Positions 1 through 40,581 of a DNA stretch of 64,000 bases are shown here, piece by piece; the first letter of the stretch is position 1; each line of letters begins with the position of its first letter. The DNA comes from Candidatus Goldiibacteriota bacterium (GTDB lineage: Bacteria > Oederibacteriota > PGYV01), in NCBI GenBank assembly GCA_016937715.1, contig JAFGWA010000017.1, positions 3,227-67,226 of the forward strand. The letters are read 5' to 3'. The notes under the pieces are model-generated. The model was not told the origin of the DNA and ran no database searches. It was given only the letters and a program-made list of their open reading frames with translations. Made by a program: the position numbers and the translations under genes.

Positions 1-257
1 AGGCCGGCGGTTGGAATGGCAAAAATTAACGCATTTATTTTAAGTTCTTTTTCAGGACCGGTTTTTACAAACCTGTTCATTACCTTGCATACTGCCATGT
101 AAAAAAAAACAAATAATAAAGCTGTCAGAACGCCGGCTATAATTGATTTATAAACACCTTCAGCCCCCATAAACTTCAAAAATGGGGCAATACACATAAA
201 CGTAAGAATTAAACCTGAAACAGCGGGCAGAACATACCACGGCTGATTTTTATTCAT
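1..257 (-). CDS. hypothetical small membrane protein, N-terminal part only (gene runs off the window start)
   Basis: Minus-strand ORF starting at ATG (reverse complement of 255-257), overlapping the stop of the upstream 3D-domain gene by 4 nt (ATGA). Translation MNKNQPWYVLPAVSGLILTFMCIAPF... is hydrophobic. Absent from the ORF track because it is truncated by the window edge. Confidence 0.3.
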   Translation of the reverse strand, partial: MNKNQPWYVLPAVSGLILTFMCIAPFLKFMGAEGVYKSIIAGVLTALLFVFFYMAVCKVMNRFVKTGPEKELKINALIFAIPTAG

Positions 258-952
258 TTTTTCTTTTTATTGGCATAATAACTTTTTGGTTTTGTGCCAA
301 GCACGTATACTTTTACTTTTTTTCTTCCCCATTTAAAAGCTTCTTCGGTGGTATTGTAACAAAGGTCTATTTTTTTGCCTTTAATGGCGCCGCCGACATC
401 CCCGCACCAGGCAAAACCATATCCGTCAACGTAAATAAGCGACCTTAAAGCAATTACTTTGGGGTCCACAGCGGCTATTCCATGTCTTGTACGCCATCCA
501 AGCGATGTTATCCCCGCCCACTTTAATCCGTTGGATTCAGGCGACGGGTCATATGCCGTGGCTTCCACATCATGGACGTAATGCACATAGGTGGTCTCCG
601 GAACGGTTATGGGATGATTTGATTTTGATATGCCCTCTATCTTAAAACCATTTTTTGGTTTTTTTATTATTCCGGTATTATATAAAGCTTTTGAAAAAAC
701 TGTTCTGCCGCCCAAATCAAGATTTTTACTTACAGAATGGCTGTAGCCTTTTTGCCCTTCTTCAAGCCAAACTGTCCATCCGCTTTTAATAAAATTACTT
801 TTTCTTACTTTTATGTCAAAAGGAATATATTCCTTTGCAACGCCTGCGCTTATGCGCGTATTTATGGCAGCGGCGGCAAAAATAACCCACGCGGCAAATA
901 AAATAACTGCGGCTGTTTTAAAACCCGTATTATTAATATTATTCATAATCAA
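254..952 (-). CDS. 3D-domain protein (MltA-like fold; YuiC/YabE-like cell-wall associated)
   Basis: N-terminal signal/TM segment; C-terminal motifs ATAYDP...GWRTRHGIAAVDPKVI...IYVDGYG.AWCGDVGGAIKG are typical of the 3D domain. Confidence 0.55.
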   Translation of the reverse strand: MIMNNINNTGFKTAAVILFAAWVIFAAAAINTRISAGVAKEYIPFDIKVRKSNFIKSGWTVWLEEGQKGYSHSVSKNLDLGGRTVFSKALYNTGIIKKPKNGFKIEGISKSNHPITVPETTYVHYVHDVEATAYDPSPESNGLKWAGITSLGWRTRHGIAAVDPKVIALRSLIYVDGYGFAWCGDVGGAIKGKKIDLCYNTTEEAFKWGRKKVKVYVLGTKPKSYYANKKKK

Positions 953-954
953 AA

Positions 955-2016
955 TTATATCAGCATTTTTCTTGTTTTTACAGAATAAACATTATGAAAA
1001 CCGGCTTTGCCTTTTACTTCCACGGGCGGAAGCGAATCCACTTCCACGATTGTTTCCACCTGCTTATATACTTCTTCTGAAATTATCACCTGACCGTTTA
1101 AGGCTGTGCCGCATATCCTGCTTGCAAAATTTACCGTATCGCCTATTACGGTGTATTCAAGCCGTTCTTCAGAACCCATATTGCCTGTTATTATCTCTCC
1201 CCTTGCAAGCCCTATTCCAAGGCCTATATTAAGGGTTGGGTCTTTTTCCTTCCACTCTTTTAATTTCATGGCAAACTGCACCTGTATATCAAGCGCTGAT
1301 AAAATAGCTTTATCCGCGTCAAGATAATCTATGTACTTGGGAGCTTCTTCAAACACGGCCATTACCGCGTCTCCGATGAATTTATTAACCCTGCCCCTGT
1401 TTTTCTGAATTGCTTTTGTAGCAATTGTGAAATACTCGTTTAACATCATAACCACCTTTTCCGGCTCTGAATTTTCCGTAAAAGACGTAAAGCCCCTTAT
1501 GTCTGAAAAAAATATGGTGGCGGTTTTTTTCTTCCCCCCCACATAATGTTCGTTAATCCCGCGGTTCTCTATTTCATCTTTTAAAGAAGGGTCAAGATAT
1601 TTTCCAAGTGAAGATTTAAACTTATCCTTATCCTGTTTGACGCTGATAAATGAACATACAAAAAGGTCAAATATTTTAAGGATATTTGCGTATGCAGCCG
1701 CATAACCGCCCCTTGTTTTCATCTGAAAACCCGCAGGCAGAATTTCCTTGGTTCTCATCTGGTTTACCATATGCTTTAATATTTTTGAAGCAAAAGAAGA
1801 AAGGTTCATCATTGCAAACAGGTATATCAGCACTCCAAGGTAAAAAGCTCCAAGAATTACGGATGCCAGAATATCTTCCCATGGCGAGACAGCAAATTTT
1901 TTTGAAAGTGTTGCTGACAGCAGTTTAAACAGCGGGTCATAACCAAACGCAATCAGCATGCCTATTAACGCGCTTAAGAACATAATGCTTTTTACGGGCG
2001 CTTTATTTTTTCTCAT
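955..2016 (-). CDS. membrane-anchored class III adenylate/guanylate cyclase
   Basis: Two or three N-terminal TM helices; cyclase core FFSDIRGFTSFTE...FIGDAVMAVF...GLARGEIITGNMGS...YTVIGDTVNFASR. Confidence 0.8.
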   Translation of the reverse strand: MRKNKAPVKSIMFLSALIGMLIAFGYDPLFKLLSATLSKKFAVSPWEDILASVILGAFYLGVLIYLFAMMNLSSFASKILKHMVNQMRTKEILPAGFQMKTRGGYAAAYANILKIFDLFVCSFISVKQDKDKFKSSLGKYLDPSLKDEIENRGINEHYVGGKKKTATIFFSDIRGFTSFTENSEPEKVVMMLNEYFTIATKAIQKNRGRVNKFIGDAVMAVFEEAPKYIDYLDADKAILSALDIQVQFAMKLKEWKEKDPTLNIGLGIGLARGEIITGNMGSEERLEYTVIGDTVNFASRICGTALNGQVIISEEVYKQVETIVEVDSLPPVEVKGKAGFHNVYSVKTRKMLI

Positions 2017-2056: not shown

Positions 2057-2701
2057 TTATTTAAATAACTCCCTGATTTTTTTTACGTTAATTTCTCTCA
2101 TATTTTTTACGTTAAGCTTTGTTTTATTCAGTTTGTGTTCCCTTGTGACGCCTATGCTTATCATGCCCGCCGCGTTGGCTGCGTCAATGCCTATCTGAGC
2201 GTCTTCAAAAACCGCGCATTCAGACGGTTTAACTTTCATTTTTTTTGCCGCCCTTAAAAAAATATCCGGAAACGGCTTTCCCTTTTTCGCAAGCGCCCCT
2301 TCCGCGTCAATATCAAAATATTTAAAAATACCCTCTTGTTTAAGAATAGGCGCGGCATTTTTGCTTGAACTTGCCATAGCCACTTTTATGCCTTCGTTTT
2401 TAAGTTTTATTATAAGGTTTACCGTGCTTTTAAAAATTTTTACCCCGTTTTTTTTAAGGTATATTTCAAAAAATTTCTGTTTTTCAGCGCATATACGCTC
2501 CACTTCTTTGTCATCTGCCAGCGGTAAAAGAGCTTTTACCCCTTTTGCCCGCGGCATACCGTCTATCTTATTTTTAAAATCCGCAAAAGTAAATTTCATA
2601 TTGTAATCCCTTTTTAAAACCGTTTCCCAGGATTTATGGTGAAGGGGGGCTGTGTCAATTATAACCCCATCCACATCAAAAATTACCGCTTTTAATTCCA
2701 T
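2057..2701 (-). CDS. HAD-IA hydrolase (beta-phosphoglucomutase-like)
   Basis: Motif I FDVDGVIIDT at the N-terminus; overall HAD fold motifs (KVAMASSS, FEDAQIGIDAA). Confidence 0.75.
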   Translation of the reverse strand: MELKAVIFDVDGVIIDTAPLHHKSWETVLKRDYNMKFTFADFKNKIDGMPRAKGVKALLPLADDKEVERICAEKQKFFEIYLKKNGVKIFKSTVNLIIKLKNEGIKVAMASSSKNAAPILKQEGIFKYFDIDAEGALAKKGKPFPDIFLRAAKKMKVKPSECAVFEDAQIGIDAANAAGMISIGVTREHKLNKTKLNVKNMREINVKKIRELFK

Positions 2702-2729
2702 TATTTCACCCTGTATTTTTTTAAATTTT

Positions 2730-3392
2730 TTATACGCACAATTCTTTCATTTTTTTAATGTCTTTAATATATATTTTTCTTTTTATTACATTGATAATTT
2801 TTTCTTTTTCCATTAAAAGCAGAGTCCTTGTCGTGGTTTCCCTTGTAAGGCCTGCTAAATCGCCCAGCTCCTGATGCGTAAATTTAACTTTTCCGTCCTC
2901 ATCTTTAAAATCCATAAGCACGCAGGCTATTCTGCTTTTAGCGTTTCCGAGCGCAAGAATTTTTATATCACGGTCCGCTTTTGAAAGCCTTTCAGAAAGG
3001 CTTTTAATTATCTGAAGCGAAATTGAAGGTTCTTTGGATATAATTTCTTCAAAATTTTCACGGGAAATACTGAGCGTCCCGGTGTCTTCAAAAGCTTCCA
3101 CCGTGGCGGACCGCGCTTCTTTTGTAAGCAGGGCCATCTCGCCAAAAGCGTCTTTTCTTTTTAATATGGCAAGGGTCTTTGTCTTGCCGTCTTTTGAATA
3201 CTTCACCACCCTTACCACTCCGGAAATTATGATGTGAAGCGAATCGCCGGCTTCACCTTCGCTGAAAATAGTATCTCCGGCGGCATACATATTTTCTTTC
3301 ATATGCTGCAAAATTATTAAAAGCCCGCTGTCTTTAACTCCGGAAAAAATAAAACTTTCTTTCAGACAAAGAATCAACTCTTTTTTTGTCAT
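2730..3392 (-). CDS. Crp/Fnr-family transcriptional regulator (cNMP-binding domain plus HTH)
   Basis: cNMP-binding beta-roll (FGEMALL...RSATV) followed by a C-terminal HTH ELGDLAGLTRETTTRTL. Confidence 0.85.
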   Translation of the reverse strand: MTKKELILCLKESFIFSGVKDSGLLIILQHMKENMYAAGDTIFSEGEAGDSLHIIISGVVRVVKYSKDGKTKTLAILKRKDAFGEMALLTKEARSATVEAFEDTGTLSISRENFEEIISKEPSISLQIIKSLSERLSKADRDIKILALGNAKSRIACVLMDFKDEDGKVKFTHQELGDLAGLTRETTTRTLLLMEKEKIINVIKRKIYIKDIKKMKELCV

Positions 3393-3420: not shown

Positions 3421-6012
<2,592 letters not shown>

Positions 6013-6025
6013 TTATTTCCTCCGT

Positions 6026-6262
6026 TTATTCCGTTATCCGTTTTATAAGGCTTCCCGCATTTATACGGGAAAAATACAGCATTACTTTTCCTTTTTTTTC
6101 AACCAATGCCAGGCTTTTCTGTTTTTCAGATTCATTCCTTACTTTTCTGCCTTCCTTCATTTTTTCAAGCAAGACAGTGTTTAATCCAACCGAAGAAAAA
6201 ATTCCTATTATTTCATCTTCTCCAAAAAAAACACCCTGGCCTATATGAAGCGTTTTCATCAT
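6026..6262 (-). CDS. DUF370 / RemB (YaaB)-like small protein
   Basis: HIGQGVFFGEDEIIGIFSS matches the DUF370 signature (B. subtilis YaaB HLGDDFVVSTRDIVGIFDF). It sits in the conserved position immediately upstream of gyrB. Confidence 0.55.
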   Translation of the reverse strand: MMKTLHIGQGVFFGEDEIIGIFSSVGLNTVLLEKMKEGRKVRNESEKQKSLALVEKKGKVMLYFSRINAGSLIKRITE

Positions 6263-6543
6263 CCTTTTATCCTTATAACCACTTCTTTTACGCCGTCAAT
6301 TCCGGACGCAAGGTTTGCTTTTTTAATTATTTCACGGCGGATGTACCCAAGTTCTGATTTTACCGTACTGTTGTCCGCGTAAACAAAAAGTTTTCCTTCA
6401 TTATATTTAAAAGGCTCTGTCTTTGAACAAAGTTTCTGGCCGGCTATCCTGCTCCAGTTATCGTGAATCTTTTCAATCACCATATCTTCTGAAAAACCGG
6501 TTTTTTTAATAAGCTTTTCAACTATATTTTTAATTTCTTCCAT
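6259..6543 (-). CDS. DUF721 (DciA-like) protein
   Basis: Pattern W..I.G..L...T.P......G.L.V.ADNS.W..EL.Y.........N...G...V.....R is typical of DUF721/COG5512, which is characteristically encoded in recF/gyrB neighbourhoods. It overlaps the downstream gene by 4 nt. Confidence 0.6.
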   Translation of the reverse strand: MEEIKNIVEKLIKKTGFSEDMVIEKIHDNWSRIAGQKLCSKTEPFKYNEGKLFVYADNSTVKSELGYIRREIIKKANLASGIDGVKEVVIRIKG

Positions 6544-6545: not shown

Positions 6546-7934
6546 TTATTCGCTTAAAAAAAGCGGAACATCAAATACAACCCCGCCGCTTATATTTAAA
6601 AACGGATATGAAATGTTTTTTCCGTTTTGGGTTAATGTGTAGTTATAACCCGCGTCAGCCTTTATTGAAAACATTTTAAGAATAATAAATTCCACGCCTG
6701 CCGCGGCTTCTGCCGTATAGTCTATTTCGTTCTTTTTTTCTGAATAACCGCCGTCAAACAGATACATGGTGCTGACAAGGGCAACCCCGTTGCCAAGCCT
6801 TAAGTAAGGCATTAAGAACAGGTCTTTTCTGTAGCCCATATACCAGTAAACATTCACAAGCAGATCCGTCATATTAAGCTCATATTTATAAAAATCTTTA
6901 TCATTGGCAAGTGAAACCGTCCTGCCCGCGACTCCAAGCCTGAAAGCGCCGTTAATACTTAACTGAAATTCCGCGTTTAAACCAAGCCCGAATTTTGTGT
7001 CTTCTTTAAGCGAATCCGGCGACAGCGGCATAAAACCGCTTGCGCCAGCGTTTATGGTGACTTTTGGCGTTTCTTCATCCGGGCGTTTTAAAGACAAGTA
7101 ATATTTTACAAGCGACTGAAACTGAACCGGCGGCATCCACGCCGCAAATTTCTGCTGCGCGAAAGGTTTAAAATTAATAGAGCCCACTTTTGGATTATTT
7201 CGTTTATCATACATAAACTTCTGTATTTTGTTGTCTTCCGTATAATCCCAGAAGTTATTTTTACAATCCGCGTCAAGCGCCGAATAATTTGTCACATTAA
7301 CGGTGCTTGATAAAAAATTATTTTTTTCAATGAGCATTTTGGTGTCATCAAAGCGCTGCAGATAAACGGCAAACCTGTTTTTACTGAAAGTATTGCCGGT
7401 TATCGTAAAACTCATTTTCTGGCCTTCGGCATATACGCCGTAAGTATTGTTAAAAAAATAACTGTCTTTAATTACCGCCTTGGCAAAATGAAAGAGCGTA
7501 ATGCCTGTGGCATTTAAAATATAATTGTTGGAAAAAATTAAACTTCCGCCTTCAACTTTAATTGTGCCCCTTATAAAAACCGTAAATTCCATAACACTTT
7601 TATATTTACCTTCATAAACAAGGCCTTCATAAAAAGTTTCACCGTCAAAGGGCAGAAGCCTTACGGGATTTGCCGGCAGCCCTTTACAGTTAAAGACGCC
7701 CTGGACGGTAATTTTGCCTTCTTTTTTAAATTTAATCACCGTGCCCGGCTGGACATTTATTATTGTTTTTTTTCCTATAGTGACATTATCACTAATAATA
7801 TACGGTGAATTTTTAACATTCCACGTTTCACTTTTTTCAAGTGTCCCGTTTACATTTGTTTCTGCGTAGGCGGCTGTAAACATCACTGACAGCAGTAAAA
7901 CTGCAGCAGCGGCGATTTTTTTCAAAAACACCAC
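6546..7934 (-). CDS. secreted protein with beta-helix-like repeats and a C-terminal beta-barrel-like domain (hypothetical)
   Basis: Signal peptide MVFLKKIAAAAVLLLSVMFTAAYA; the N-terminal half has N/G/T-rich repeats resembling a right-handed beta-helix; the C-terminal ~180 aa is alternating amphipathic. No confident family assignment. Confidence 0.45.
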   Translation of the reverse strand: MVFLKKIAAAAVLLLSVMFTAAYAETNVNGTLEKSETWNVKNSPYIISDNVTIGKKTIINVQPGTVIKFKKEGKITVQGVFNCKGLPANPVRLLPFDGETFYEGLVYEGKYKSVMEFTVFIRGTIKVEGGSLIFSNNYILNATGITLFHFAKAVIKDSYFFNNTYGVYAEGQKMSFTITGNTFSKNRFAVYLQRFDDTKMLIEKNNFLSSTVNVTNYSALDADCKNNFWDYTEDNKIQKFMYDKRNNPKVGSINFKPFAQQKFAAWMPPVQFQSLVKYYLSLKRPDEETPKVTINAGASGFMPLSPDSLKEDTKFGLGLNAEFQLSINGAFRLGVAGRTVSLANDKDFYKYELNMTDLLVNVYWYMGYRKDLFLMPYLRLGNGVALVSTMYLFDGGYSEKKNEIDYTAEAAAGVEFIILKMFSIKADAGYNYTLTQNGKNISYPFLNISGGVVFDVPLFLSE

Positions 7935-7939: not shown

Positions 7940-10573
7940 TTATATGATATCTGTACCTTTGTCATCTTCAAGGTCCGGAAGCGGCGGCAATTCGCCGTTA
8001 AAAGGCGCAGGCTGCTCTTTTTCAAGAAGTTTATCTGATATCTTTACGTCTTTACCAGGAAGGTCAGGCACAGGCCCGGCCGGTTTTTCCATATCAAGAA
8101 TATCATTTACTTTTATGACTTCCGGCTGTGTTTCCGGGGATTTTGATGCGTCCCAGCCTGCCATAGAATTAGTCTGTATTTTAAAAGACCCCTGCGGTTT
8201 TTCCGCCGGTTTTTCTTTTGGCGGTTCCTGACCGCCGAACATGGACGCAAAAGGATTCATTATTTTAGGTTTCTGAAGTTCAGGCTCCGGTTTAATTTCC
8301 GGAAGTTCCGCAATTTCAGGAAGCGGCGCCGGTTTTTCATCAGCCAAAGGTTTTATTTCCGGCATTGTATTTTTTATTTCCGCTGCAGGTTTCACGGTTT
8401 CCGGTTTAAATGCCGGAACAGCATCAGGTTTAAAGCCGCCTTTTTTATCAAACGGAAGGGAGATAATAAATGCCTTTCCTTTTCCTATTTCTGATTCTAT
8501 CCAGATATCGCCGCCCATCTTTTTAATAACGGCTTTTATGATAGGAAACCTTAAACCCGAATTAATGAATTCCGGGCCGGCCTGCGATTCAGGCCCGTGA
8601 AAATTTGAAAATAATGATTCTGCCTTTGACTTTGGCATACTCATTCCGTAATCCATTATCACTATTTTAACCATCGTGCCTTCCTGTTTTGTTTCTACCG
8701 ATACAGAACCGCCTCTTGGCGATACTTTAATGGACTGTGTCAGTAACTGTGACAGCACAGCGGAAAGCCTTGCGGAATCGCCTGAAGCGGAATTTAAAGT
8801 CTGCATAAATTTAGTTTTAATTTCCACTTTTTTTACGTCAGCCTGCGGCTGCACGGAAAAAATTATATCCTGAATTATTGTATTAACATCCACAGGATTC
8901 TGGTTTAATTTTATTTCGCCTTTTTCAAGCCTTGCAAGTTCTGACAGGTCGTTTATAAGCCTTTCCAGCCTTGCCGACTTATTGATAACCACGCCCAAAA
9001 ACTGCTGCTGCGCGTCGGTAATTTTACCTTCGCCGCCAAGGACAGAAGAAATATAGGTTTTAATAACCGAAAGCACGCCTTTTAATTCGGTGTTCATCAT
9101 TAAAACCGCGTCAGTACGCATGTCTTCCTTATCAGAAACAACAGGCGCGTCTTTTAATTTTTTTGCTTCTTCCTTAAGCTGTATTTTTTCCCTTTCAAGG
9201 GCGTCAATTTTTAACTTTGCTTCATCTGCCGCCGCTTTTAATTTATCTTCAAGTTCTTTTTTAACCCTTGCGGTTTCCGCTTTTAACTTTGACGTTTCTT
9301 CTTCAACATTTATCTTGCTGTTTTCCGCTATTTTTAAAGCATCGCGCAGTTCTGATATTTCCATATCCGCCCTTGACGCTTCTTTTGAAAGTTCTTCTTC
9401 CAGTTCTTTTGACATCTGTGAAAGTTTGGCCGCCTTGTCTTCCGACGCGTTTATCCTTCCCTTTAATATCACAAGAGAATCCGACATTTTTTTATAAGGC
9501 CCGCTTTTAAGTTTGGGCAGCATTGATTCAAAACTTTCTTCGTCTATGTGAGTCATTGCTTTTGTAATTTTAGAAACCGGAGCAAAAGGGGCGCCGCTTG
9601 AACCTATTATTATCAGAAACCCTATTAAAAGCCCCAGCCCAAGTATGCCATAAACAGGCAGTATATATTTGGTGTCATAAATTGAATGAGTGTATTTTTT
9701 TGCATTATCAGACTGCAGTGATTTATAATCCATATAAGGGGTAAAGACGCATGAAATTAATCCTGTTTCCCTGTTTTTCTTGTAAGCTAATAGGCCCCTT
9801 TCATTCACATAAACAGCCTCTTTAATATTTTCATCTTCAACATTATCGGTTAAAATAACCTTTAAATCTTTTGAATCCTGTATGTTTTCGGCGTTTTCCT
9901 TGGATTTATCCGTGCTTAATAGCACTGTCCCCGCCATGTTAACTATAAAATTACGGCCCCTTACAGACTGGGTTTCTTTGCGTATTCTGTCAGATAATCC
10001 TTCTATATTTTCTTTTACATATAAAACAGAAGCAAGGTTGTCCTTAATATCAACAACAGGGATAAAATATTCAGCGATCCCTTCACTGAATTTAATATCG
10101 CTTATTATCTTTTTTGAAGCTTTTGCCTGGATAAATTTGGCATTCTGGGCGAATTTCCCCGAACTTGATGATTCGGCTCCGGCAAGCACATTGCCGTTGG
10201 GATATAATAATGCCGTAACACCTGAAAGCCCTGATACTTTTTTCTGATAAGCGGATTTTATTTTTGATTTTACCTTAAGGTTGCTGTAACTGGAATTGCG
10301 GATAATATAATCCGATGTAACGCCTGAATATTTACTCTGAATTTTCTGTTCGGACAGCATTACAGTGCCGTTATGCACGATGTTAAGTTTTTCTTTCATC
10401 TGTTCGCTTATTATATTTATCTCTTTCTGCTTGTCCGCCCAGGCTATTTTGGAATTAAGTTCATTTAACTGCGCCACTCTGGACGTATCATAAAGATAAA
10501 ATACCGCGGCAGGCACGCCAAACAGAAACACAGCCGCAAGCAGCATATTTCTTATAAGAGAACCTTTACTCAT
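7940..10573 (-). CDS. membrane sensor histidine-kinase-like protein with degenerate catalytic motifs (probable pseudokinase), coiled-coil and a Pro/Glu/Lys-rich C-terminal tail
   Basis: TM helix at residues 9-27, a second TM near residue 300, a long coiled coil, a HisKA-like dimerization region (NTELKGVLSVIKTYISSVL...RLERLINDLSELARLEKGEIKL) in which the phospho-acceptor His position is Thr, and an HATPase_c-like region with N-box Asn->Gln and degenerate G boxes (MDYGMSM, NSGLRF). The C-terminus has PEIKP-type low-complexity repeats. Confidence 0.6.
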   Translation of the reverse strand: MSKGSLIRNMLLAAVFLFGVPAAVFYLYDTSRVAQLNELNSKIAWADKQKEINIISEQMKEKLNIVHNGTVMLSEQKIQSKYSGVTSDYIIRNSSYSNLKVKSKIKSAYQKKVSGLSGVTALLYPNGNVLAGAESSSSGKFAQNAKFIQAKASKKIISDIKFSEGIAEYFIPVVDIKDNLASVLYVKENIEGLSDRIRKETQSVRGRNFIVNMAGTVLLSTDKSKENAENIQDSKDLKVILTDNVEDENIKEAVYVNERGLLAYKKNRETGLISCVFTPYMDYKSLQSDNAKKYTHSIYDTKYILPVYGILGLGLLIGFLIIIGSSGAPFAPVSKITKAMTHIDEESFESMLPKLKSGPYKKMSDSLVILKGRINASEDKAAKLSQMSKELEEELSKEASRADMEISELRDALKIAENSKINVEEETSKLKAETARVKKELEDKLKAAADEAKLKIDALEREKIQLKEEAKKLKDAPVVSDKEDMRTDAVLMMNTELKGVLSVIKTYISSVLGGEGKITDAQQQFLGVVINKSARLERLINDLSELARLEKGEIKLNQNPVDVNTIIQDIIFSVQPQADVKKVEIKTKFMQTLNSASGDSARLSAVLSQLLTQSIKVSPRGGSVSVETKQEGTMVKIVIMDYGMSMPKSKAESLFSNFHGPESQAGPEFINSGLRFPIIKAVIKKMGGDIWIESEIGKGKAFIISLPFDKKGGFKPDAVPAFKPETVKPAAEIKNTMPEIKPLADEKPAPLPEIAELPEIKPEPELQKPKIMNPFASMFGGQEPPKEKPAEKPQGSFKIQTNSMAGWDASKSPETQPEVIKVNDILDMEKPAGPVPDLPGKDVKISDKLLEKEQPAPFNGELPPLPDLEDDKGTDII

Positions 10574-10648
10574 TTACTTCCTCCTTAAAAATGTATTCCA
10601 TGAAAAAATATTTATGGCGTCATACCCTTGTAAATTTAACCGCCGCTG

Positions 10649-13108
10649 TTATTCCTGTACTTCTTCCTCTTCTTCGGCAACCCTTGCCACCGCGCTTACT
10701 TTTTCCGCGTCTTTAAGTTTAATTAACCTGACACCCTGTGTATTTCTGCCTATGGTCTTAATGTCTTTTATTTTTGTCCTGATAAGGGTGCCTTTATTTG
10801 TAATTATCATAAGCTCATTGGCGTCTTCCACAAGCTTAATGGAAACAACTTCGCCTGTCTTATCGGTCACCTTTATGCTTATAAGCCCTTTTCCGCCGCG
10901 GCTTTGTTCCCTGTATTCTGAAATTTTTGTGCGTTTTCCAAAACCTTTTTCAGTGACAGTTAAAAGCGTGGAATCTTTTTTATCAGAGCCAAGTATTGTC
11001 ATGCTTACCACTTTATCTTTTTTATTCAGGTTTATCCCGCGTACGCCCATTCCTGTACGCCCTATTTCCCTGAACTGTTTTACCTTTGTGCGGATAGCCA
11101 TACCGTCCATTGTAGCTATGAAAATTTCATCTTTTTCCGACGCTATTTTTGTATCAATAAGCTTATCGTCATCATTAAGCCCTATGGCTATAATGCCGCC
11201 GCTTCTTGGATTTCCAAACAGCGATAAGTTAGACCTTTTAATAAGCCCGGATTCCGTGGACATTATCAGGTACTTATCTTCTTCAAATGATTTAACTGAA
11301 ACATATGCCGCCACGGTTTCGCCTTCTTCAAGCTTAATAAGATTTACAATCGCTTTGCCCCTGGTCTGCCTTGCGCCTTCGGGTATTTCATATACCTTAA
11401 GCCAGTGGCAGCGCCCTTTGGACGTAAAGAACATTAAGAATTCATGCGTGTTGGAAACAAAAAGGTCTTCTATAAAATCCTCTTCTTTTGTTTCCATGGC
11501 AATTATGCCGCGGCCGCCGCGCTTCTGCGCTTTGTAAGCGGACACAGGAGTCCTTTTAATAAACCCGCGGTGCGTAATGGTAACCACCATATCTTCTTCC
11601 TGGATAAGGTCTTCCATTGTCATTTCTTTTTCTTTGGCAATTATCTGCGTCCTGCGGTCATCCGAATATTTTCTGCGGACTTCAACAAGTTCTTCTTTCA
11701 TCAAATCAAGAATCTTCTTTTCACTTGCAAGAATTGACTTTAATTTTTCAATCAGTTTTAAAAGTTCTTTGTATTCGTTTTCCAGTTTTTCAACTTCAAG
11801 GTTTGTCAGCTGCTGAAGCCTCATGTCCAGAATTGCCTGCGCCTGCATGACAGACAGGTTAAAAGCGGCAATAAGTTTGCCTTTGGCTTCTTCTGTGCTG
11901 GAAGAGCCCCTTATTATTTTTATTACCCTGTCAAGATACTTTAACGCTATTTTTAAACCTTCCAGAATGTGCGCGCGTTTTTCCGCTTTATCAAGTTCAA
12001 ATTTAAGCCTTCTTATTATTACCTGTTTTCTGAACTGTATAAAATTTTCAAGGAATTCTTTAATATTAAGGACACGCGGCCTTCCATCCACAATAGCAAG
12101 CATTATTACGCCAAAGGTGGTTCTCATCTGCGTGTGTTTATAAAGCTGGTTTAAAATTATTTCAGGATTGTCATTTTTTGAAATTTCAATTACAGCCCTG
12201 GTGCCGTCTTTATCCGATTCATCCCTTAAATCAGTAATACCTTCAATTTTTTTATCTTTTACAAGGTTGGCTATGTTTTCAAGCAGATTGGCTTTGTTTA
12301 CCATATAAGGAAGTTCCGTGATTATTATCTGTTTTTTGCCTTTTTTACTTTCTTCAATTTTTATCTTTGACTGCATTACAATAGAGCCCCTGCCCGTACT
12401 GTATGCCGATTTTATTCCTTCTTTTCCTATTATGAAAGCTCCTGTGGGAAAATCCGGGCCTTTTATCACACCCATAATTTCTTCTATTTTTGTATTTTTA
12501 TTATCTATTACCATAATTGTGGCGTCAATAACTTCGCCAAGATTGTGGGGAGGAATATTGGTGGCCATACCTACGGCAATACCGGAAGAACCGTTTACCA
12601 GAAGGTGCGGGAAAGATACCGGCAGCACTGTGGGTTCTTTTGTGGATTCATCATAATTAGGTACAAAATCAACCGTGTTTTTATCAAGGTCTTTTAAAAG
12701 TTCTTCCGCAAATTTGCTTAAACGCGCTTCTGTATAACGCATTGCGGCGGGCGGATCGCCGTCCACCGAACCAAAGTTACCCTGTCCGTCCACAAGCGGC
12801 ATTCTGAATACAAATGGCTGCGCCATTCTGACCATGGTATCGTAAATAGAGGAGTCGCCGTGGGGATGATAATTACCCATTACTTCTCCGACTATTTTAG
12901 CGGATTTTCTATATGATTTATTGCTGTAAAGCCCCATATCGTGCATTCCATACAGGACCCTTCTATGAACGGGTTTTAAACCGTCGCGGATATCAGGAAG
13001 CGCCCTTCCCACAATTACACTCATTGAATAATCAAGATATGATGTTTTTATTTCGTCTTCTATGGCCGCCTGAATTATTCTTCCGCCGGGTTTTATCTCT
13101 TCTTCCAT
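10649..13108 (-). CDS. gyrA: DNA gyrase subunit A
   Basis: Full-length GyrA homology (active-site region [11 protein letters not shown]-terminal beta-pinwheel repeats). It starts 38 bp downstream of dnaN. Confidence 0.95.
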
Positions 13109-14256: not shown

Positions 14257-14676
14257 ATTTCCTCCTGAATAAAATATTTTTAAAAGTTTTCAACATTGTA
14301 AAAACTCATCAATAACAATTATTTAAATATATATAACCTTTGTTGTAGTTGTTGTAGTGTTAATATGACTAATAACCTTAAAAATATTATATTTTAAAAA
14401 GCTTTATAAGTTTTGTTAATGTTAATTGTTATAATATTTTAATACATAACCCGGTATTTATCCACAAAAAAATGACCCTATTTTTATTAACATTTTAATG
14501 AACACGTTATTATGATAGTTGTTAACATAAACCGTATTAATAAATAATATAATAAAGAAAGCAAATTTAAACACACAGAAGGTTAGATGCTTTGAGGCTT
14601 TGAGGCTTGACAAGCAAATAAAGGATGAAAAATATTCAGCTTCTGTGTAATGACGGGGTAACAAAAAAATTAATAT
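14257..14676. other. dnaA-dnaN intergenic spacer: candidate oriC/DNA-unwinding element (AT-rich, one perfect DnaA box)
   Basis: A 420-bp gene-free, extremely AT-rich spacer in the classical oriC position. It has a perfect TTATCCACA box at 14458-14466 and short direct repeats (gttgttgtagt x2; gctttgagg x2). Confidence 0.45.
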
Positions 14677-16020
14677 TTACTTTTTTACTCTCATTACTAT
14701 TTCATTTATTGAGTTTTTAAATTTATCGTCTGATTTTACAAGTTTATCAACTTTATTTATTGCGTGCATAACTGTTGTGTGGTCTTTGCCTCCAAAATAC
14801 TGGCCTATTTGAACAAGCGAATAATCTGTAAGGCTGCGCGTGATATACATTGCCACCTGGCGTGATTTTGCTATGTTTTCATACCTTTTTTTGGACAAAA
14901 GGTCCTGTACTTTTATTCCGAAATAATCGGAAACTATCTGTTGTATCATATCAATACCTATTTTTTTTGCCTGGTCAAACTTTGGATTTCTTATTTTAAT
15001 TGCTTTCTTGGCAAGTTCAATATCAAGTTCTTCGGGGTTTTCCGCCAGTATCAGCAGGTTTTTAAGCGTGCTTTCAAGTTCCCTTATATTATTATCAATG
15101 TGTTCCGCTATATACCCGATAACATTATCAGGAACTTCTTTGTTGGATTCCATGGCTTTCTGTTTTAATATAGCCACCCTTGTTTCAAAGTCCGGAGCAA
15201 GAATATCCGCAATAATTCCGGAAGAGAACCTTGATTTAAGTCGGTCTTCAAGCTTCAAGTCGCCGGGCGGGGAATCTGATGTGGCCACAATCTGTTTGTT
15301 GTGGTTGTATAATTCATTAAAAGTATGAAAGAATTCTTCAATTGTGGCGTCGCCGCGTAAAAACTGAATGTCATCCACTAAAAGCAGGTCAGTGCTTCTG
15401 TAGCGGTTTTTAAATTCATCCATCTTATTTTCGCGGATTCCCTGAGTCACTTCAAAAAGGAATTTTTCCGCTGTGATTATCATTATTTTTTTTGAAGGAT
15501 CCTGTTCATAAATGTATGTTCCGATAGCGTGTAAAAGGTGTGTTTTTCCAAGCCCTACGCCCCCATAGATGAACAAAGGGTTGTATGCCTGTCCCGGTGC
15601 CTCTGCCACTGCTTTACAGGCAGCGTGCGCGAACCTGTTGCTTTGGCCTACTATGAAGTTATCAAATCGGAAACGCGAGTTTAATGAAGGTATAAAAGGG
15701 TGCTGAGGGTCAAGCGGAAGCAATATCTGCTGTTCTTTAATGACAATTTTGGATGACTGGTCTTTTTTGGGTTCTTCAGTTTTAATAACTTCCAATTTAA
15801 GGTCAGATACCTGCCTAAAACCCTTTTCAATTGATTCCATAAGCTCGTTTTTATACTTGGCAAGGGTTTTTTGATGAAGAGAGTCAGGTATGGTGATTAC
15901 AACACAGTCTTTTTCTGTGTTAAAAGACACAGTAGCCTTTTCAAGCCATAAGTTAAGGCCGCTATTTTCTTCTTTAATGGAATTAATAATAACTTCCCAG
16001 TTAAATTCTTTGTTTTTCAA
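14677..16020 (-). CDS. dnaA: chromosomal replication initiator DnaA (start revised to TTG at 16020; the ORF-track ATG at 16092 would read through two DnaA boxes)
   Basis: AAA+ Walker A GGVGLGKTHL and the C-terminal DNA-binding domain. Homology to the DnaA N-terminus begins at ...EFNWEVI. A TTG (minus 16020) is preceded by AAGGGG 8 nt upstream, and perfect TTATCCACA boxes at 16049-16057 and 16071-16079 fall inside the longer ATG-initiated frame. Confidence 0.9.
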   Translation of the reverse strand: MKNKEFNWEVIINSIKEENSGLNLWLEKATVSFNTEKDCVVITIPDSLHQKTLAKYKNELMESIEKGFRQVSDLKLEVIKTEEPKKDQSSKIVIKEQQILLPLDPQHPFIPSLNSRFRFDNFIVGQSNRFAHAACKAVAEAPGQAYNPLFIYGGVGLGKTHLLHAIGTYIYEQDPSKKIMIITAEKFLFEVTQGIRENKMDEFKNRYRSTDLLLVDDIQFLRGDATIEEFFHTFNELYNHNKQIVATSDSPPGDLKLEDRLKSRFSSGIIADILAPDFETRVAILKQKAMESNKEVPDNVIGYIAEHIDNNIRELESTLKNLLILAENPEELDIELAKKAIKIRNPKFDQAKKIGIDMIQQIVSDYFGIKVQDLLSKKRYENIAKSRQVAMYITRSLTDYSLVQIGQYFGGKDHTTVMHAINKVDKLVKSDDKFKNSINEIVMRVKK

Positions 16021-16048
16021 GCTTAAATACCCCTTGTTTTTACACAAC

Positions 16049-16144
16049 TTATCCACAAGTTGAAGTATAGTTATCCACAATATTAATGCCATATAAATAA
16101 GACATTTAATAAGTTATTAAGATTTTCCACAAAACTTATCAACA
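16049..16144. promoter_or_regulatory. DnaA-box cluster upstream of dnaA (autoregulatory region and/or oriC box array)
   Basis: TTATCCACA at 16049-16057 and 16071-16079; TTTTCCACA at 16123-16131; TTATCAACA at 16136-16144. Confidence 0.6.
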
Positions 16145-16256
16145 AAGCAATAATACCACATTATGGAATACAAATATACATAAATAATCAAAGTTCTACA
16201 GGACAGCGTATTATAGGAAGATGCGGTTAAAATGTCAAGCGCTATTTAAGAGAGGT

Positions 16257-16967
16257 CTAGTAATTATATGTCAGCAATACGCCCGGATTGTTATCGTAAT
16301 AGGCAGCCTGAACCTTTACAGGAAAGGCAAGGTGAAGCCATGCAGCGTCAAGAGCCGTATAAATTAAACAGGCGGAAGTTATAGATGTAACAATAATTGC
16401 AGTGGTTAATTTTTCATTGGCTTGTTTTTCCATATTTTTTAGTAAGTTATAATTATCCATAGTAGTGTTGTTAATTTCATCATAAATACTATTATAATCA
16501 GAAATATAATTGGAATATCCCAGCCATGAAAAAGCCGTTGTTGCCGCGCCGAATATATCTGCGGCAATAAGAAGCTTGCCGGGCAGCGGAATTTCATTTT
16601 CCCTGTTTTTGGCGGCTATTTCCGCCTCCCTTGCCGCTTCTGCCGCTGCTTCTGCCTGAGCCTGCGCAGGGTCTTTTTTTATACCAAGAAAATCTCCTAA
16701 ATCATCAAACATGGTCCTTGTTTTTGTGGGAACAGCTGTCGCAGCGGGTGAAGGTGCCGGTGTTGCCGCGGGGGATGCTGTGGTACCGGGAGTAATAACA
16801 GGCGTTGCAGACATATTCTGAAGTGCAGCTGTTATTGCCGTGGCAGTGGCTGCTACCGATGAATAATCTGTCCCTTCGGCTGCCGCAAAAGGTATTAATG
16901 CAATTGTTAATATAAAAGCCATTACTATTTTTTTCATTCTGTTTCCCCTTTTATTAAGTTTGTCCAT
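16257..16967 (-). CDS. secreted hypothetical protein (Ala/Pro/Thr-rich linker)
   Basis: Signal peptide MKKIVMAFILTIALIPFAAA (the real start is probably this internal Met). Low-complexity ATPAPSPAATAVPT region. No recognisable domain. Confidence 0.4.
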   Translation of the reverse strand: MDKLNKRGNRMKKIVMAFILTIALIPFAAAEGTDYSSVAATATAITAALQNMSATPVITPGTTASPAATPAPSPAATAVPTKTRTMFDDLGDFLGIKKDPAQAQAEAAAEAAREAEIAAKNRENEIPLPGKLLIAADIFGAATTAFSWLGYSNYISDYNSIYDEINNTTMDNYNLLKNMEKQANEKLTTAIIVTSITSACLIYTALDAAWLHLAFPVKVQAAYYDNNPGVLLTYNY

Positions 16968-37680: not shown

Positions 37681-37709
37681 TTGACCTTAATATACCGTTG
37701 TGATAATAT
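37681..37709 (+). promoter_or_regulatory. sigma70-type promoter of the HD-GYP/cyclase operon
   Basis: TTGACC (37681-37686), 17-bp spacer, TAATAT (37704-37709). The ORF-track GTG start at 37700 lies inside the -10 element, so the TTG at 37739 is the more plausible start. Confidence 0.55.
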
Positions 37710-37738
37710 ATATTTACGGTGTTTTAGCGGAGGTATTT

Positions 37739-39019
37739 TTGAAAATAAGAAGCCAGTTAATATTAGGTATAGTTGCTATCGTCATCCTTTCTGTAACTGC
37801 AACCACTGTTGTGCTTGTAAGGGATGCCGCGGAAATAATGCAGGGGCAGATAAACGAAAAAGCGTTACTTATGATAAATTATTTTAAGGGCGTCAGCGCG
37901 GAACCGCTTTTAAAAGATGATGAAGTGACGCTTAATACATATCTTAATGAAATTATTTCAACCGAAGGGCTTGTTTACCTTATTATTACCGGCAGAGACG
38001 GGTATGTGAAAGCCGCTGACGATTCTTCACTGCTTGGCGCGGTTTTAAAAAACAGGCTGCCTGAGATTGCAGCGGGTGAAAAAAATATTTTTTTGAAATA
38101 TAAAGGCAGTGATTATTCAGTGATTGCCTTTTCGGGCACCGTGGACGTAAAAGCCGGACGAATTAAAACTGAAGCGGGAAAAATCTACGCCGGTTTTGAC
38201 AGTGAATACGTAAAGGAAAAACTTGTAAGGGTTTATGTTAAAAGCGCGGCAATTGCCGCGGGTATAATTATTATATCTGTTATTTTTATTGTGGCATTAA
38301 TGCACAGGATGATGAGCCCCTTAAACAAACTTGTAAAAGGGACAAATAAAATTGCAGACGGCGATTTAAGTTATAAAATAAAAATAACCGCGGGCAATGA
38401 ATTTCAGGAGCTTGCAAACAGTTTTAACGGCATGACGGATAAACTTAAGGATTATTATGACGGAATATTAAACGCGTTTACGGTGGCGGTGGATACGCAG
38501 GATAAATATATTCCCGCGCACGCAAAAAGAGTTTCAAAGATGGCGGTTAAAACAGCGCAGGCAGCCGGGCTTTCGCCCAAAAGGGCGGAAAATTTAAGGG
38601 TGGCTGCTATATTAAAGGATGTTGGCAATATCGGAGTAAAAAGAAAAATACTTGATAAGACCGACCCGCTTACGGCTGATGATTTTCTTGAAATACAGAA
38701 ACACCCGGAAATTGGAGCTAAGATTATTAAAAATATTGATGCTTTAAAAGATGTTGTCCCTATTATAGTGGCTCATCATGAAAGGTTTGACGGCAACGGT
38801 TATCCTGACGGCAAAAAAGGCGAGGAAATTCCTGTTGAGGCAAGGATTCTTGCGGTGGCGGACGCTTATGACGCCATGACAACCGAAAGGGAGCACAGAA
38901 AAGCGCTTGATAAAGAAGAGGCGGTTTATGAACTTAGGCTTAACAAAGGAAAACAGTTTGACCCTGTTATAACAGAAAGGTTTATTGAGGTAATAAATAA
39001 GGAAGGAGGAAAAACTTAA
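37739..39019 (+). CDS. membrane HAMP-HD-GYP phosphodiesterase (start revised to TTG at 37739)
   Basis: TM - periplasmic sensor region - TM - HAMP (LVKGTNKIADGDLSYKIKI) - HD domain with HHERFDGNGYPDG (HD-GYP). GGAGG lies 5 nt upstream of the TTG. The stop overlaps the next start (TAATG). Confidence 0.8.
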   Translation: MKIRSQLILGIVAIVILSVTATTVVLVRDAAEIMQGQINEKALLMINYFKGVSAEPLLKDDEVTLNTYLNEIISTEGLVYLIITGRDGYVKAADDSSLLGAVLKNRLPEIAAGEKNIFLKYKGSDYSVIAFSGTVDVKAGRIKTEAGKIYAGFDSEYVKEKLVRVYVKSAAIAAGIIIISVIFIVALMHRMMSPLNKLVKGTNKIADGDLSYKIKITAGNEFQELANSFNGMTDKLKDYYDGILNAFTVAVDTQDKYIPAHAKRVSKMAVKTAQAAGLSPKRAENLRVAAILKDVGNIGVKRKILDKTDPLTADDFLEIQKHPEIGAKIIKNIDALKDVVPIIVAHHERFDGNGYPDGKKGEEIPVEARILAVADAYDAMTTEREHRKALDKEEAVYELRLNKGKQFDPVITERFIEVINKEGGKT

Positions 39020-40581
39020 TGGCAGAAAAAAAGACGGTGAAGAAAAAAAATAAAGGATTAAAAATTTCACTGGGGGCTAAGTTTAGTTTTTTAGTGGGGC
39101 TGTTGTTTGCCGGAATAATGACGGTTGTCACCGTATTTATATATAATCACGAAAGCGATGTTCTTTCAAACCAAATAAAGCAGCGAGGTACTGCAATTGC
39201 GGTAAATCTTGCCAATAACGCATCCGAAGCGCTTACCAATGATGATGAACTTACGCTTTCCAAGCTTGCCAGGGAAGCTGTACAGGAAACAAAGTTTGAT
39301 GAAACACAAATGGAATTATATGACCGTGTAATTAAGATATTAAAGGAAGATATAATTGAACAGAAGAAGAAAGAAATTATTAAAAACGAAGGCATTATGG
39401 AAGCTGTTGTTGTAAAAAAAGACGGAAATATTGCGTCCGCGGATGAAGTAAGGAGGATAGATGAAAGATATATCCTTCCGGCGGGTTTAAAACCCGTTCA
39501 AAAAGAAAATGATGTGCTTATTCAGGAATATAAAAAAAATGGAAAAAGTTATTTTGATATCGCGGTACCTTTAAAAGCGAAGCTTGGTATGGATGAACAC
39601 ATGATAGGAGAGGTTCATCTTACGGTTTCAACGCAGATAATAACCGAGAGCGTGGCCGTGGCTTCTGTTAAAGTCGCCCTTATTACTATAATAGGGCTTA
39701 TAGCAGGGATACTTTTTACGGTACTGCTGGTAAACTTTATGGTAAAACCAATAAAGCAGCTTGTAAAAGGCGTTAATAAAATAGGGGAAGGAAATTATGA
39801 TGTGGTAATTCCCACCAGGTCGCATGATGAAATAGGCGATTTGACGAAAGCTTTTAATTCCACAGCCAAAAGCCTTAAGGAAAAAGAACTTTTAAAAGGC
39901 GCGTTTTCCACTTATGTGTCGGACAAAGTCATGCAGCAGGTTTTAAAAGACCCTAACAAACTGCAGCTTCACGGAATTAAGGTAAAAGCCACAATGATGT
40001 TTACCGATATCAGGGGATTTACATCAATGTCTGAAAATCTTCAGCCGGAAGAGGTTGTAAGCGTAATAAATGAGTATCTGACACTGCAGACTGATAAAGT
40101 TTTTAAATTTGAAGGGCTTCTTGATAAGTTTGTGGGAGACTGTGTAATGGCTGTATATGGCGTGCCTTTTCCCAAGCCGGATGACGCATACCGCGCCGTA
40201 AGGACAGCAATGGCTATAAGGGAAGGCGTGGAAAAACTTAATGTGATAAGAAAAAGAAGAAACATGATAGTGGTTCAGATAGGTATTGGGGTTAATACCG
40301 GCGATGTGGTTTCCGGAAACATGGGTTCGCCGCAGAAAATGGATTATACCGTAATAGGCGACAATGTAAACCTTGCCGCAAGGCTTGAAGCAAACGCTCC
40401 CGGCGGGCAGGTATGGGTAAGCGAAAGCACATATCTTGAGACAAAAGATTATATTGAATATGAAGAACTGGCGCCTATAATGGTTAAAGGAAAAAAGGAG
40501 CCGGTAAAAGTTTACAGCCCAAAAACTGTTATAATGGAATATCCAAAAGAACTGCTGGAAAAGGATAATAATGGAGCTTAA
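39019..40581 (+). CDS. membrane HAMP-class III adenylate/guanylate cyclase
   Basis: TM - sensor - TM - HAMP (LVKGVNKIGEGNYDVVIPT) - cyclase core MFTDIRGFTSMSE...FVGDCVMAVYG...GVNTGDVVSGNMGS...YTVIGDNVNLAARLE. Confidence 0.85.
   Translation: MAEKKTVKKKNKGLKISLGAKFSFLVGLLFAGIMTVVTVFIYNHESDVLSNQIKQRGTAIAVNLANNASEALTNDDELTLSKLAREAVQETKFDETQMELYDRVIKILKEDIIEQKKKEIIKNEGIMEAVVVKKDGNIASADEVRRIDERYILPAGLKPVQKENDVLIQEYKKNGKSYFDIAVPLKAKLGMDEHMIGEVHLTVSTQIITESVAVASVKVALITIIGLIAGILFTVLLVNFMVKPIKQLVKGVNKIGEGNYDVVIPTRSHDEIGDLTKAFNSTAKSLKEKELLKGAFSTYVSDKVMQQVLKDPNKLQLHGIKVKATMMFTDIRGFTSMSENLQPEEVVSVINEYLTLQTDKVFKFEGLLDKFVGDCVMAVYGVPFPKPDDAYRAVRTAMAIREGVEKLNVIRKRRNMIVVQIGIGVNTGDVVSGNMGSPQKMDYTVIGDNVNLAARLEANAPGGQVWVSESTYLETKDYIEYEELAPIMVKGKKEPVKVYSPKTVIMEYPKELLEKDNNGA

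Follow-up and report, generated by a model that had tools for sequence, protein, structure and literature searches.

Introduction

DivL from Caulobacter crescentus (PDB 4Q20) shows neither kinase nor phosphatase activity; its dimerization and histidine phosphotransfer (DHp) domain is reused to dock DivK~P, so that information flows in the reverse direction (PMC4211667). In PsmA from Streptomyces venezuelae, and throughout its lineage, the His of the H-box is missing along with the phosphatase motif D/ExxT/N and the motifs for ATP binding, and the protein acts by interacting with DivIVA (PMC12963549). RetS from Pseudomonas aeruginosa (PDB 6DK7, 6DK8 and 7N0E) binds the DHp domain of another kinase instead of signalling by its own phosphorylation. 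Here we describe a histidine-kinase-like membrane protein without phospho-acceptor His which is encoded directly downstream of gyrA in a Candidatus Goldiibacteriota bacterium (GenBank assembly GCA_016937715.1, contig JAFGWA010000017.1, positions 3,227 to 67,226 of the forward strand). This whole stretch of 64,000 nucleotides is called the window in the following, and all coordinates of its features refer to it. An initial annotation made from the letters alone had interpreted the protein as a catalytically dead pseudo-histidine-kinase scaffold in the style of DivL and not as a signalling kinase. Our analysis of the sequence suggests that the open reading frame probably encodes a transmembrane receptor or scaffold built on the chassis of a class-I (HisKA-type) histidine kinase, which does not phosphorylate and signals by protein binding. 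The gene and its translation signal are located as follows.

7940..10573, minus strand: complete open reading frame of the His-less histidine-kinase-like membrane protein, 877 amino acids plus stop, ATG start
10580..10586, minus strand: ribosome-binding site AAGGAGG, 6 nt before the ATG, within the 75-nt spacer between gyrA and the open reading frame

Comparison with Described Systems

HK853 from Thermotoga maritima and kinases of the WalK/PhoR/PnpS type are the closest described proteins by sequence. HK853 was matched with an E value of 2e-26, which places the window protein nearer to these kinases than to DivL (E 9e-15). The NCBIfam models PnpS (2.7e-37), WalK (6.9e-36) and PhoR (5e-31) were also matched, all far below their cut-offs. 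The order of transmembrane segment, extracytoplasmic sensor, second transmembrane segment, linker, DHp domain and catalytic and ATP-binding (CA) domain is common to the WalK/PhoR-type kinases and the window protein. However, active kinases of this type carry the motifs SHELRTP, NxxxN, DxGxG and GxGxG, whereas the family described here carries xELKG, QxxxQ, DxGMS and NxGLRF, each of them fixed. A cognate response regulator gene adjacent to the kinase gene is also missing.

DivL resembles the window protein in its DHp-CA fold without acceptor His (Foldseek E ~5e-12). In contrast to the window protein, which has no PAS domain but a HAMP-like linker and a long helix ahead of the DHp domain, the alphaproteobacterial DivL possesses several cytoplasmic PAS domains in tandem upstream of its DHp domain and no periplasmic Cache sensor. 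DivL binds DivK~P, a phosphorylated single-domain response regulator, and controls CckA. At the acceptor position DivL carries Tyr, while the group of the window protein carries Thr, Asn or Ser. The long disordered tail with conserved motifs and the linkage to gyrA also set the window protein apart. Judged by these comparisons, it is an analogue and not an orthologue of DivL.

PsmA is likewise a His-less kinase-like protein whose loss of the His is conserved and which works by protein interaction. It differs as a cytoplasmic hybrid protein with PAS and receiver domains that is confined to the Streptomycetaceae, and the two were compared at the level of the general kinase fold. RetS shares with the window protein the membrane sensor and the kinase-like core (Foldseek E ~4e-12). 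Unlike the window protein, RetS has retained the His, contains receiver domains and possesses another type of periplasmic domain; moreover, a partner kinase is not evident for the window protein.

Catalytic Motifs and Domain Architecture

The catalytic motifs were assigned by alignment with HK853, which matched residues 482-712 (phmmer search against the PDB). In this alignment ISHELRTPL of HK853 is paired with MNTELKGVL of the window protein; His260 stands opposite Thr495, and the position of the acceptor His is therefore that of Thr495. LLNLLNNGVKYS is found opposite LSQLLTQSIKVS, so that the two N-box Asn residues correspond to Gln609 and Gln613. DNGIGI is aligned with DYGMSM (G1), GTGLGL with NSGLRF (G2) and FYRVDS with FHGPES, where a Gly takes the place of the F-box Arg. 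The codons at the acceptor, N-box and G1-F-G2 sites were re-read in the DNA.

9089..9091, minus strand: codon of Thr495 at the position of the phospho-acceptor His
8735..8749, minus strand: N-box QLLTQ, in which Gln609 and Gln613 replace the conserved Asn residues
8543..8653, minus strand: G1 (DYGMSM), F-box (LFSNFHG) and G2 (NSGLRFP), including the equivalent of the ATP lid

The replacement of the acceptor His by Thr and that of the N-box Asn by Gln had both been noticed in the initial annotation, and the latter was borne out for both Asn residues. The G1 and G2 boxes had been called degenerate. The motifs DYGMSM and NSGLRF were indeed found. However, in G1 Asp641 and the first Gly (Gly643) are retained and the second Gly is a Ser, while in G2 two of the three glycines are replaced, the third one by Arg. 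As shown below, the altered motifs are invariant in relatives and not eroded.

The whole protein contains four His residues (67, 296, 342 and 659), none of them in the DHp domain and none between residues 343 and 658. Two of them were considered as alternative acceptors and rejected: His342 occupies a position of the juxtamembrane linker where relatives have His, Arg or Lys, and His659 is invariant but belongs to the F-box of the CA domain, which is not a phosphotransfer helix. In kinases of the HisKA type the His is followed by the phosphatase motif E/DxxT/N (PMC12963549). The window protein reads E496-L-K-G499, so that Gly499 occupies the position four residues after the His (H+4) and the motif is absent. 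Since neither a conserved His elsewhere in the helix nor an intact set of N-box and G-boxes was found, the observation behind the initial annotation is confirmed.

Profile and structure comparisons, both proposed in the initial annotation, agreed with this result. The Pfam model HATPase_c was matched above its threshold (61.2 versus 26.4 bits, E 1.5e-16). HisKA stayed below it (23.2 versus 26.9 bits), and its match starts just past the position of the His. An AlphaFold2 model built on 45 relatives had a mean predicted local distance difference test (pLDDT) score of 67.5. A Foldseek search of the PDB with this model gave a full-length model of WalK as the top match, together with HK853, YycG, GacS, CusS, RetS and DivL. 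The histidine kinase fold is retained. Judged by its sequence, the protein is a putative histidine pseudokinase of a new family, a class in which the fold is kept, the catalytic residues are lost and the loss is conserved among orthologues. The domains of the protein follow one another in this order.

10484..10561, minus strand: first transmembrane segment, residues ~5-30 (Kyte-Doolittle 19-residue mean 2.14; within the AlphaFold2 helix 3-71)
9671..10483, minus strand: periplasmic double-Cache-like sensor, residues ~31-301 (pLDDT ~85-90)
9596..9670, minus strand: second transmembrane segment, residues ~302-326 (hydropathy 2.52; AlphaFold2 helix from residue 307)
9458..9595, minus strand: juxtamembrane HAMP-like linker, residues 327-372 (from the alignment)
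9125..9457, minus strand: long helical segment rich in Glu, Lys, Ala and Leu, residues 373-483 (AlphaFold2 helices 359-395 and 403-473; composition)
8906..9124, minus strand: DHp domain without phospho-acceptor, residues 484-556 (491-546 nearly invariant across the family)
8444..8905, minus strand: CA domain of the HATPase_c fold with altered nucleotide-binding motifs, residues 557-710
7943..8443, minus strand: disordered tail rich in Pro (29), Lys (22) and Glu (19), residues 711-877 (pLDDT <50)

Hydropathy analysis revealed hydrophobic stretches at residues ~5-30 and 302-334, in line with the two transmembrane segments of the initial annotation. The periplasmic domain was modelled as a long helix followed by two alpha/beta modules, a topology consistent with a double Cache (dCache) domain. 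Pfam dCache_1 (PF02743) matched 16 of the 45 family members with a best E value of 5.6e-7 and the window protein only weakly (E 0.18). The signature of amino-acid-binding dCache domains, which we take to be RxWY...D, was not visible in residues 96-175. The Pfam HAMP model did not match the window protein; one relative is named a HAMP-domain kinase at NCBI. The long coiled coil proposed earlier is represented by the helical segment 373-483, which in view of the model is probably a dimeric coiled coil; several family members showed weak matches to coiled-coil families. The model placed the DHp hairpin at helices 481-512 and 520-550 and the alpha/beta CA domain at residues 559-708 with a poorly resolved lid (644-672, pLDDT <50). 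Searches with Pfam detected no PAS, receiver or HPt domain in the protein; for the PAS families this held up to an E value of 1.

The tail comprises 167 residues and not 200 as first stated; its disorder and its richness in Pro, Lys and Glu were confirmed. The alignment revealed four conserved short motifs in it, namely FKIQTN (consensus FKIQRN), VNDILDM (consensus TVNDLLSFD), LPGKDV and ELPPLPDLEDDKG. Ile799, Pro839, Gly840, Leu862, Pro863, Pro864 and Leu868 are invariant, and Gln800 and Asn802 are conserved in at least 90% of the sequences. The nearby dnaN gene prompted the idea of a beta-clamp-binding motif; this was rejected, since TVNDLLSFD (VNDILDM in the window) does not fit QL[SD]LF, which we take to be the consensus.

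Conservation and Spread of the Family

A search of 5.8 billion proteins yielded about 50 full-length relatives with 46-97% identity, below which the matches dropped to generic kinases at an E value of 1e-20. The sources of the close relatives are named Candidatus Goldbacteria or Goldiibacteriota. Species genomes of the GTDB added candidate division FCPU426 and metagenome-assembled genomes (MAGs) labelled "Spirochaetia" or "Methylomirabilis". The databases call the family members "sensor histidine kinase" or "ATP-binding protein", and a literature search for kinases downstream of gyrA or for Goldbacteria kinases returned nothing relevant and no paper describing the family.

In 45 Goldbacteria-type members position 495 is occupied by Thr (37), Asn (7) or Ser (1). 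Gln613, Lys616, Asp641, Gly643, Met644, Ser645, Phe655, Phe658, His659, Gly660, Asn671, Gly673, Leu674, Arg675, Phe676, Pro677 and Ile678 are invariant in all of them. The DHp segment 491-546, which comprises most of both helices and the loop, is essentially identical in these proteins, although their overall identity is about 50%. The best 56-residue stretch of the kinase-like protein, located in the DHp domain, has 89% invariant columns, compared to 75% for GyrB, 71% for GyrA, 61% for DnaA and 41% for DnaN of the same genomes. In 35 distinct nucleotide versions of the DHp segment the first and second codon positions were 95% identical and the third ones 44%. Consequently, the constraint lies on the protein, and a DNA or RNA element as the cause of the invariance was ruled out. 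The DHp domain is under purifying selection at the protein level which is stronger than that on gyrase, and its synonymous sites are saturated.

For the wider family 1.84 billion cluster representatives were searched with profiles. Additional searches for homologous proteins were less productive: the alignment of the distant groups yielded one group only, the word index being probably swamped by the Pro-rich tails of low complexity, and the DHp-CA alignment retrieved chiefly short fragments and generic kinases. The family comprises, besides the Goldbacteria type with the window and FCPU426, a high-GC (64-67%) soil group with proteins of 900-1200 amino acids, a group with proteins of 750-840 amino acids including one named Candidatus Firestonebacteria, and at least three more divergent groups. 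All groups share INxSARLE in the second DHp helix, an acceptor position without His, Gln or His in place of the Mg-binding Asn and GL[RK]F in G2. Their tails are rich in Pro and end in an acidic-hydrophobic peptide. Canonical kinases of the same match list retain SHELRTP and NAIKF. Residues were counted in 122 distinct cores. As INxSARLE was the criterion by which these cores had been chosen, the numbers characterize the family without testing it independently.

Acceptor His position: Thr 54, Ser 25, Glu 18, Asn 11, Ala 4, Gly 4, Asp 3, Met 1, Val 1; never His and never the Tyr of DivL
Position of the Mg-binding Asn (613): Gln 113, His 8, Thr 1; never Asn
Asp of G1 (641): Asp 122
Third Gly of G2: Arg 106, Lys 14
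Position of the F-box Arg: Gly 107, Asp 11, others 3

Since the altered motifs are invariant across relatives, they represent fixed alternatives and not erosion. H+4 is Gly or Ala in 107 of the 122 cores and Thr in 10, all from one divergent group; thus, the E/DxxT/N phosphatase motif is mostly missing in the family.

Some source genomes showed peculiarities of their own. The Goldbacteria-type loci from MAGs labelled "uncultured Spirochaetia" or "Candidatus Methylomirabilis" (L006, L007, L010, L014-L017, L019 and L023) look mislabelled. MAG SKW142 yielded two different complete dnaA-dnaN-gyrA loci with the kinase-like gene (L020 and L025) and is probably a mixed bin. In two long-read MAGs (L001/L018 and L004/L022) genes are split, gyrA into 370 + 434 amino acids in one and the kinase-like gene into 245 + 572 amino acids in the other; these are probably frameshift errors of the assemblies rather than real pseudogenes.

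Linkage to gyrA

The kinase-like gene lies inside the gyrA-gyrB block, as the initial annotation had it. The neighbouring genes are all encoded on the same strand.

14677..16092, minus strand: dnaA
13147..14256, minus strand: dnaN
10649..13108, minus strand: gyrA, upstream neighbour of the kinase-like gene
6546..7934, minus strand: beta-helix/outer-membrane-barrel gene, 462 amino acids (Pfam NosD, Beta_helix and OMP_b-brl)
6259..6543, minus strand: dciA (DUF721; Pfam DciA E 6.8e-14)
3421..6012, minus strand: gyrB, after dciA

Read along the minus strand the order is dnaA, dnaN, gyrA, the kinase-like gene, the beta-helix gene, dciA and gyrB. The gap between gyrA and the kinase-like gene measures 75 nt, that between the kinase-like gene and the beta-helix gene 5 nt and that between the beta-helix gene and dciA 2 nt. 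A scan of the region found terminator-like sites in a number not above chance and none inside these three gaps, including the gyrA spacer, which contains a weak promoter-like site (10634-10607). The product of the beta-helix gene has an N-terminus resembling a signal peptide, a right-handed beta-helix of the NosD type and an outer-membrane beta-barrel in its C-terminal part.

A metagenome scan contributed 38 loci. Among the 46 loci examined, four were uninformative because they start inside the gene. Across all lineages gyrA was located directly upstream on the same strand in 41 of the 42 informative loci from metagenomes or assemblies. The exception, a complete genome, has a 2.3-kb insertion with four opposite-strand genes between gyrA and the kinase-like gene. 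In the 24 Goldbacteria-type loci (species genomes and assemblies) gyrA was directly upstream in all cases, and the order dnaA-dnaN-gyrA-kinase-like gene-beta-helix gene-dciA-gyrB-crp was kept wherever the contig allows. The beta-helix gene was present in every Goldbacteria-type locus reaching far enough downstream and absent from the other lineages of the family.

In the high-GC group dnaA-dnaN-gyrA and the kinase-like gene, which overlaps gyrA by 4 nt, are followed by thiamine and type-II-secretion-ATPase genes. In the Firestonebacteria-type group the same four genes are followed by unrelated ones. Further groups showed gyrA and the kinase-like gene with an 11-nt overlap, the order dnaA-dnaN-gyrA-kinase-like gene, or recF-dciA-gyrB-gyrA-kinase-like gene with a 4-nt overlap. 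Start-stop overlaps of 4 to 11 nt between gyrA and the kinase-like gene thus occur in several lineages. The identity of GyrA to that of the window drops to 54-64% in the distant groups. Since the genes downstream of the kinase-like gene differ from group to group, the beta-helix gene and the position between gyrA and gyrB are specific to Goldbacteria, and the pair of gyrA and the kinase-like gene is the conserved unit. Its strict linkage and the overlapping codons argue for co-expression and make a functional tie to gyrase or the origin plausible. Goldbacteria, Firestonebacteria and Elusimicrobia are nearest neighbours (PMC7031533).

The high-GC loci (L027, 14331-19872; L028, 13853-18937) contain, after the kinase-like gene, a gene similar to thiamine-phosphate synthase and two ATPases of type II secretion or type IV pili with MshEN domains. 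Beyond these an HD_5 phosphohydrolase is encoded on both contigs and a response regulator on one. A third divergent group showed a similar order of thiamine and ATPase genes.

Proposed Mode of Action and Alternative Explanations

The periplasmic double-Cache-like domain would sense something outside the cytoplasm. The signal would then pass through the second transmembrane segment, the HAMP-like linker and the long, probably dimeric helix to the four-helix bundle formed by the DHp domains and the attached CA domains. The DHp domain has no acceptor His; in the CA domain neither the Asn that binds Mg nor the Arg of the F-box nor the glycine-rich lid of G2 is present, and the protein is predicted to be catalytically inert. 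With the catalytic residues lost in both domains, it would be unable to phosphorylate itself and to pass the phosphoryl group on to a response regulator. By analogy with the pseudokinase DivL we infer an action by protein-protein interaction. The most likely output would be a conformational change which controls the binding of one or more highly conserved cytoplasmic proteins at the near-invariant DHp surface. This surface is the normal docking site of response regulators and, being nearly invariant here, an obvious site of interaction. The four tail motifs would probably bind further partners.

The verdict of the initial annotation was accordingly sustained in part. Catalytic residues are absent in every relative examined and the kinase fold is kept, whereas "scaffold" and "DivL style" are analogies. 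The well-folded and conserved sensor domain means that the protein may still be a signalling receptor, though not one that phosphorylates.

Several observations weigh against a non-phosphorylating receptor that signals by binding and is linked to gyrase. Asp641 and Gly643 of G1, Lys616 of the N-box and the conserved lid (FHGPES-AGPEF) are retained, which makes some binding of a nucleotide or another ligand by the CA domain possible, and Gln might partly substitute for Asn in this domain. An ExxT motif has been preserved in 10 of the 122 cores, all from one divergent group, which may therefore have a phosphatase-like activity. No response regulator or kinase is encoded within 10 kb of the open reading frame in the window. 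Neither its neighbours in the window nor the Goldbacteria loci yielded a Response_reg domain; as a sign against a canonical kinase this is weak evidence, because orphan kinases exist. With regard to gyrA, the linkage could result from selection for co-expression or origin-proximal dosage and not from a functional or physical link to gyrase. Finally, the lineages may form one larger clade, in which case part of the synteny would be inherited.

The weakest step concerns the cellular target, which, on gene linkage only, may be tied to DNA gyrase or to origin-proximal chromosome functions. In its specific form this proposal makes the family a so far unrecognised, membrane-anchored regulator or partner of gyrase or of the machinery that replicates and segregates the chromosome near the origin, which would couple an extracytoplasmic signal to supercoiling or chromosome organisation without phosphorylation. 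A receptor derived from a kinase would be made together with GyrA, and its invariant DHp domain and tail motifs would bind GyrA or another protein of the origin region. We put this forward as speculation and regard it as rather doubtful.

The foremost alternative is that the adjacency to gyrA is a historical accident or a convenience of expression from an origin-proximal, supercoiling-sensitive operon, and that the protein is a generic envelope sensor or scaffold without any tie to gyrase or replication. We do not expect this to hold, but it has to be taken seriously. The lineages concerned are related (PMC7031533), and Pfam searches detected no gyrase-related domain in the protein. In Goldbacteria the tight packing with the outer-membrane beta-helix gene across the 5-nt gap points to the envelope, and an envelope role is equally compatible with the data there. 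However, the pair with gyrA persists where the identity of GyrA has fallen as low as given above and where gyrB, dciA and dnaA/dnaN have moved, and the overlapping stop and start codons of several lineages hint at translational coupling.

A second alternative follows the example of RetS. The protein would be an anti-kinase or co-receptor whose DHp domain heterodimerizes with, or docks on, a genuine histidine kinase encoded elsewhere and modulates that kinase, and the gyrA neighbourhood would be irrelevant. The Foldseek likeness to the kinase region of RetS and to the RetS-GacS DHp complex, the invariant DHp domain, which suggests a conserved protein interface, and the retained sensor domain are in agreement with this. 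Nevertheless, no partner kinase was conserved near the gene in the examined loci of any lineage, and the attachment to gyrA amid changing downstream genes is left unexplained. Such a role appears unlikely.

Still less probable is that the protein remains an enzyme, namely a Ser/Thr/Tyr kinase of the GHKL fold that acts on its own Thr495 or on a different protein, for example GyrA. Precedents are kinases of the SpoIIAB/RsbW and PDK/BCK types and the kinase-like domains of plant phytochromes or ethylene receptors. In its favour, the acceptor position of the Goldbacteria group is most often occupied by Thr (37 of 45), Asp641 and Gly643 of G1 and Lys616 of the N-box do not vary, the conservation of the lid is strong, and the gene is located next to gyrA. 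But in many relatives the acceptor position holds Asn, Glu, Asp, Ala, Gly, Met or Val, and a hydroxyl group is therefore not conserved. None of the cores of the family has the Mg-coordinating Asn, which to our knowledge all active GHKL enzymes share. Other residues also stand in for the Arg of the F-box and for two of the three glycines of G2.

A decaying pseudogene, or a missing His due to a sequencing or alignment artefact, can practically be dismissed: although the relatives in some long-read MAGs are split into two open reading frames, the intact frame with its strong ribosome-binding site, more than 120 distinct intact relatives with the same substitutions, extreme purifying selection with saturated synonymous sites and the lack of any His in the DHp helix speak against it, and family-wide invariance, the codon-position pattern and the counts in the 122 cores refute it.

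Other Features of the Window

The region from 35579 to 36453 is an AT-rich intergenic stretch of 875 bp with a GC content of 20-27%, where the gene orientation and the AT/GC skew flip. It contains four copies of the palindrome ATTGTTCCACGTGGAACAAT (35579-98, 35921-40, 36062-81 and 36348-66), which agrees with TGTTNCACGTGAAACA, the consensus of ParB-binding parS sites. The first gene to its right is recF (36454-37551, plus strand). By these sequence features the stretch, some 20 kb away from dnaA, is a candidate for a centromere or an origin.

Perfect DnaA boxes (TTATCCACA) were found at 14458 (14458-14466), 16049 and 16071 and boxes with one mismatch at 16123, 16136 and 16453. The upstream cluster (16049-16461) overlaps the first ~15 codons of the listed dnaA frame, and the real start of dnaA is therefore probably located further downstream. 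The listed frame encodes 471 amino acids, compared to 447-450 in relatives. GyrB (3421-6012) carries an N-terminal extension rich in Lys and Glu of about 45 residues ahead of the usual start of the ATPase domain; in relatives, too, the tblastn matches set in about 50 residues into the respective GyrB genes.

The block downstream of gyrB (254-3392, minus strand) is also conserved in Goldbacteria-type genomes. On the plus strand two adjacent genes for HAMP membrane signalling proteins (37700-40581) share one base between stop and start codon.

2730..3392, minus strand: Crp-like cNMP-binding regulator
2057..2701, minus strand: HAD hydrolase
955..2016, minus strand: class III nucleotidyl cyclase
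254..952, minus strand: 3D-domain protein
37700..39019, plus strand: HAMP and HD_5 (HD-GYP-like) phosphohydrolase
39019..40581, plus strand: HAMP and nucleotidyl cyclase

Significance

Only few bacterial histidine pseudokinases, for example DivL and PsmA, are known, and each is limited to one lineage, whereas the family described here spans several candidate phyla of uncultured bacteria. The signature of INxSARLE, Gln or His at the position of the Mg-binding Asn and GL[RK]F offers a clean means to correct annotations and to tell dead from live kinases in metagenomes. The DHp domain is the most conserved protein segment of the origin-proximal gene cluster, ahead of gyrase and DnaA. The gene stayed attached to gyrA despite the reshuffling of the surrounding genes, and every catalytic motif of its product was exchanged for a different, fixed one. 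Together, these features point to an important, undescribed and conserved protein-protein interaction, by which the cell envelope might act directly on DNA topology or replication.

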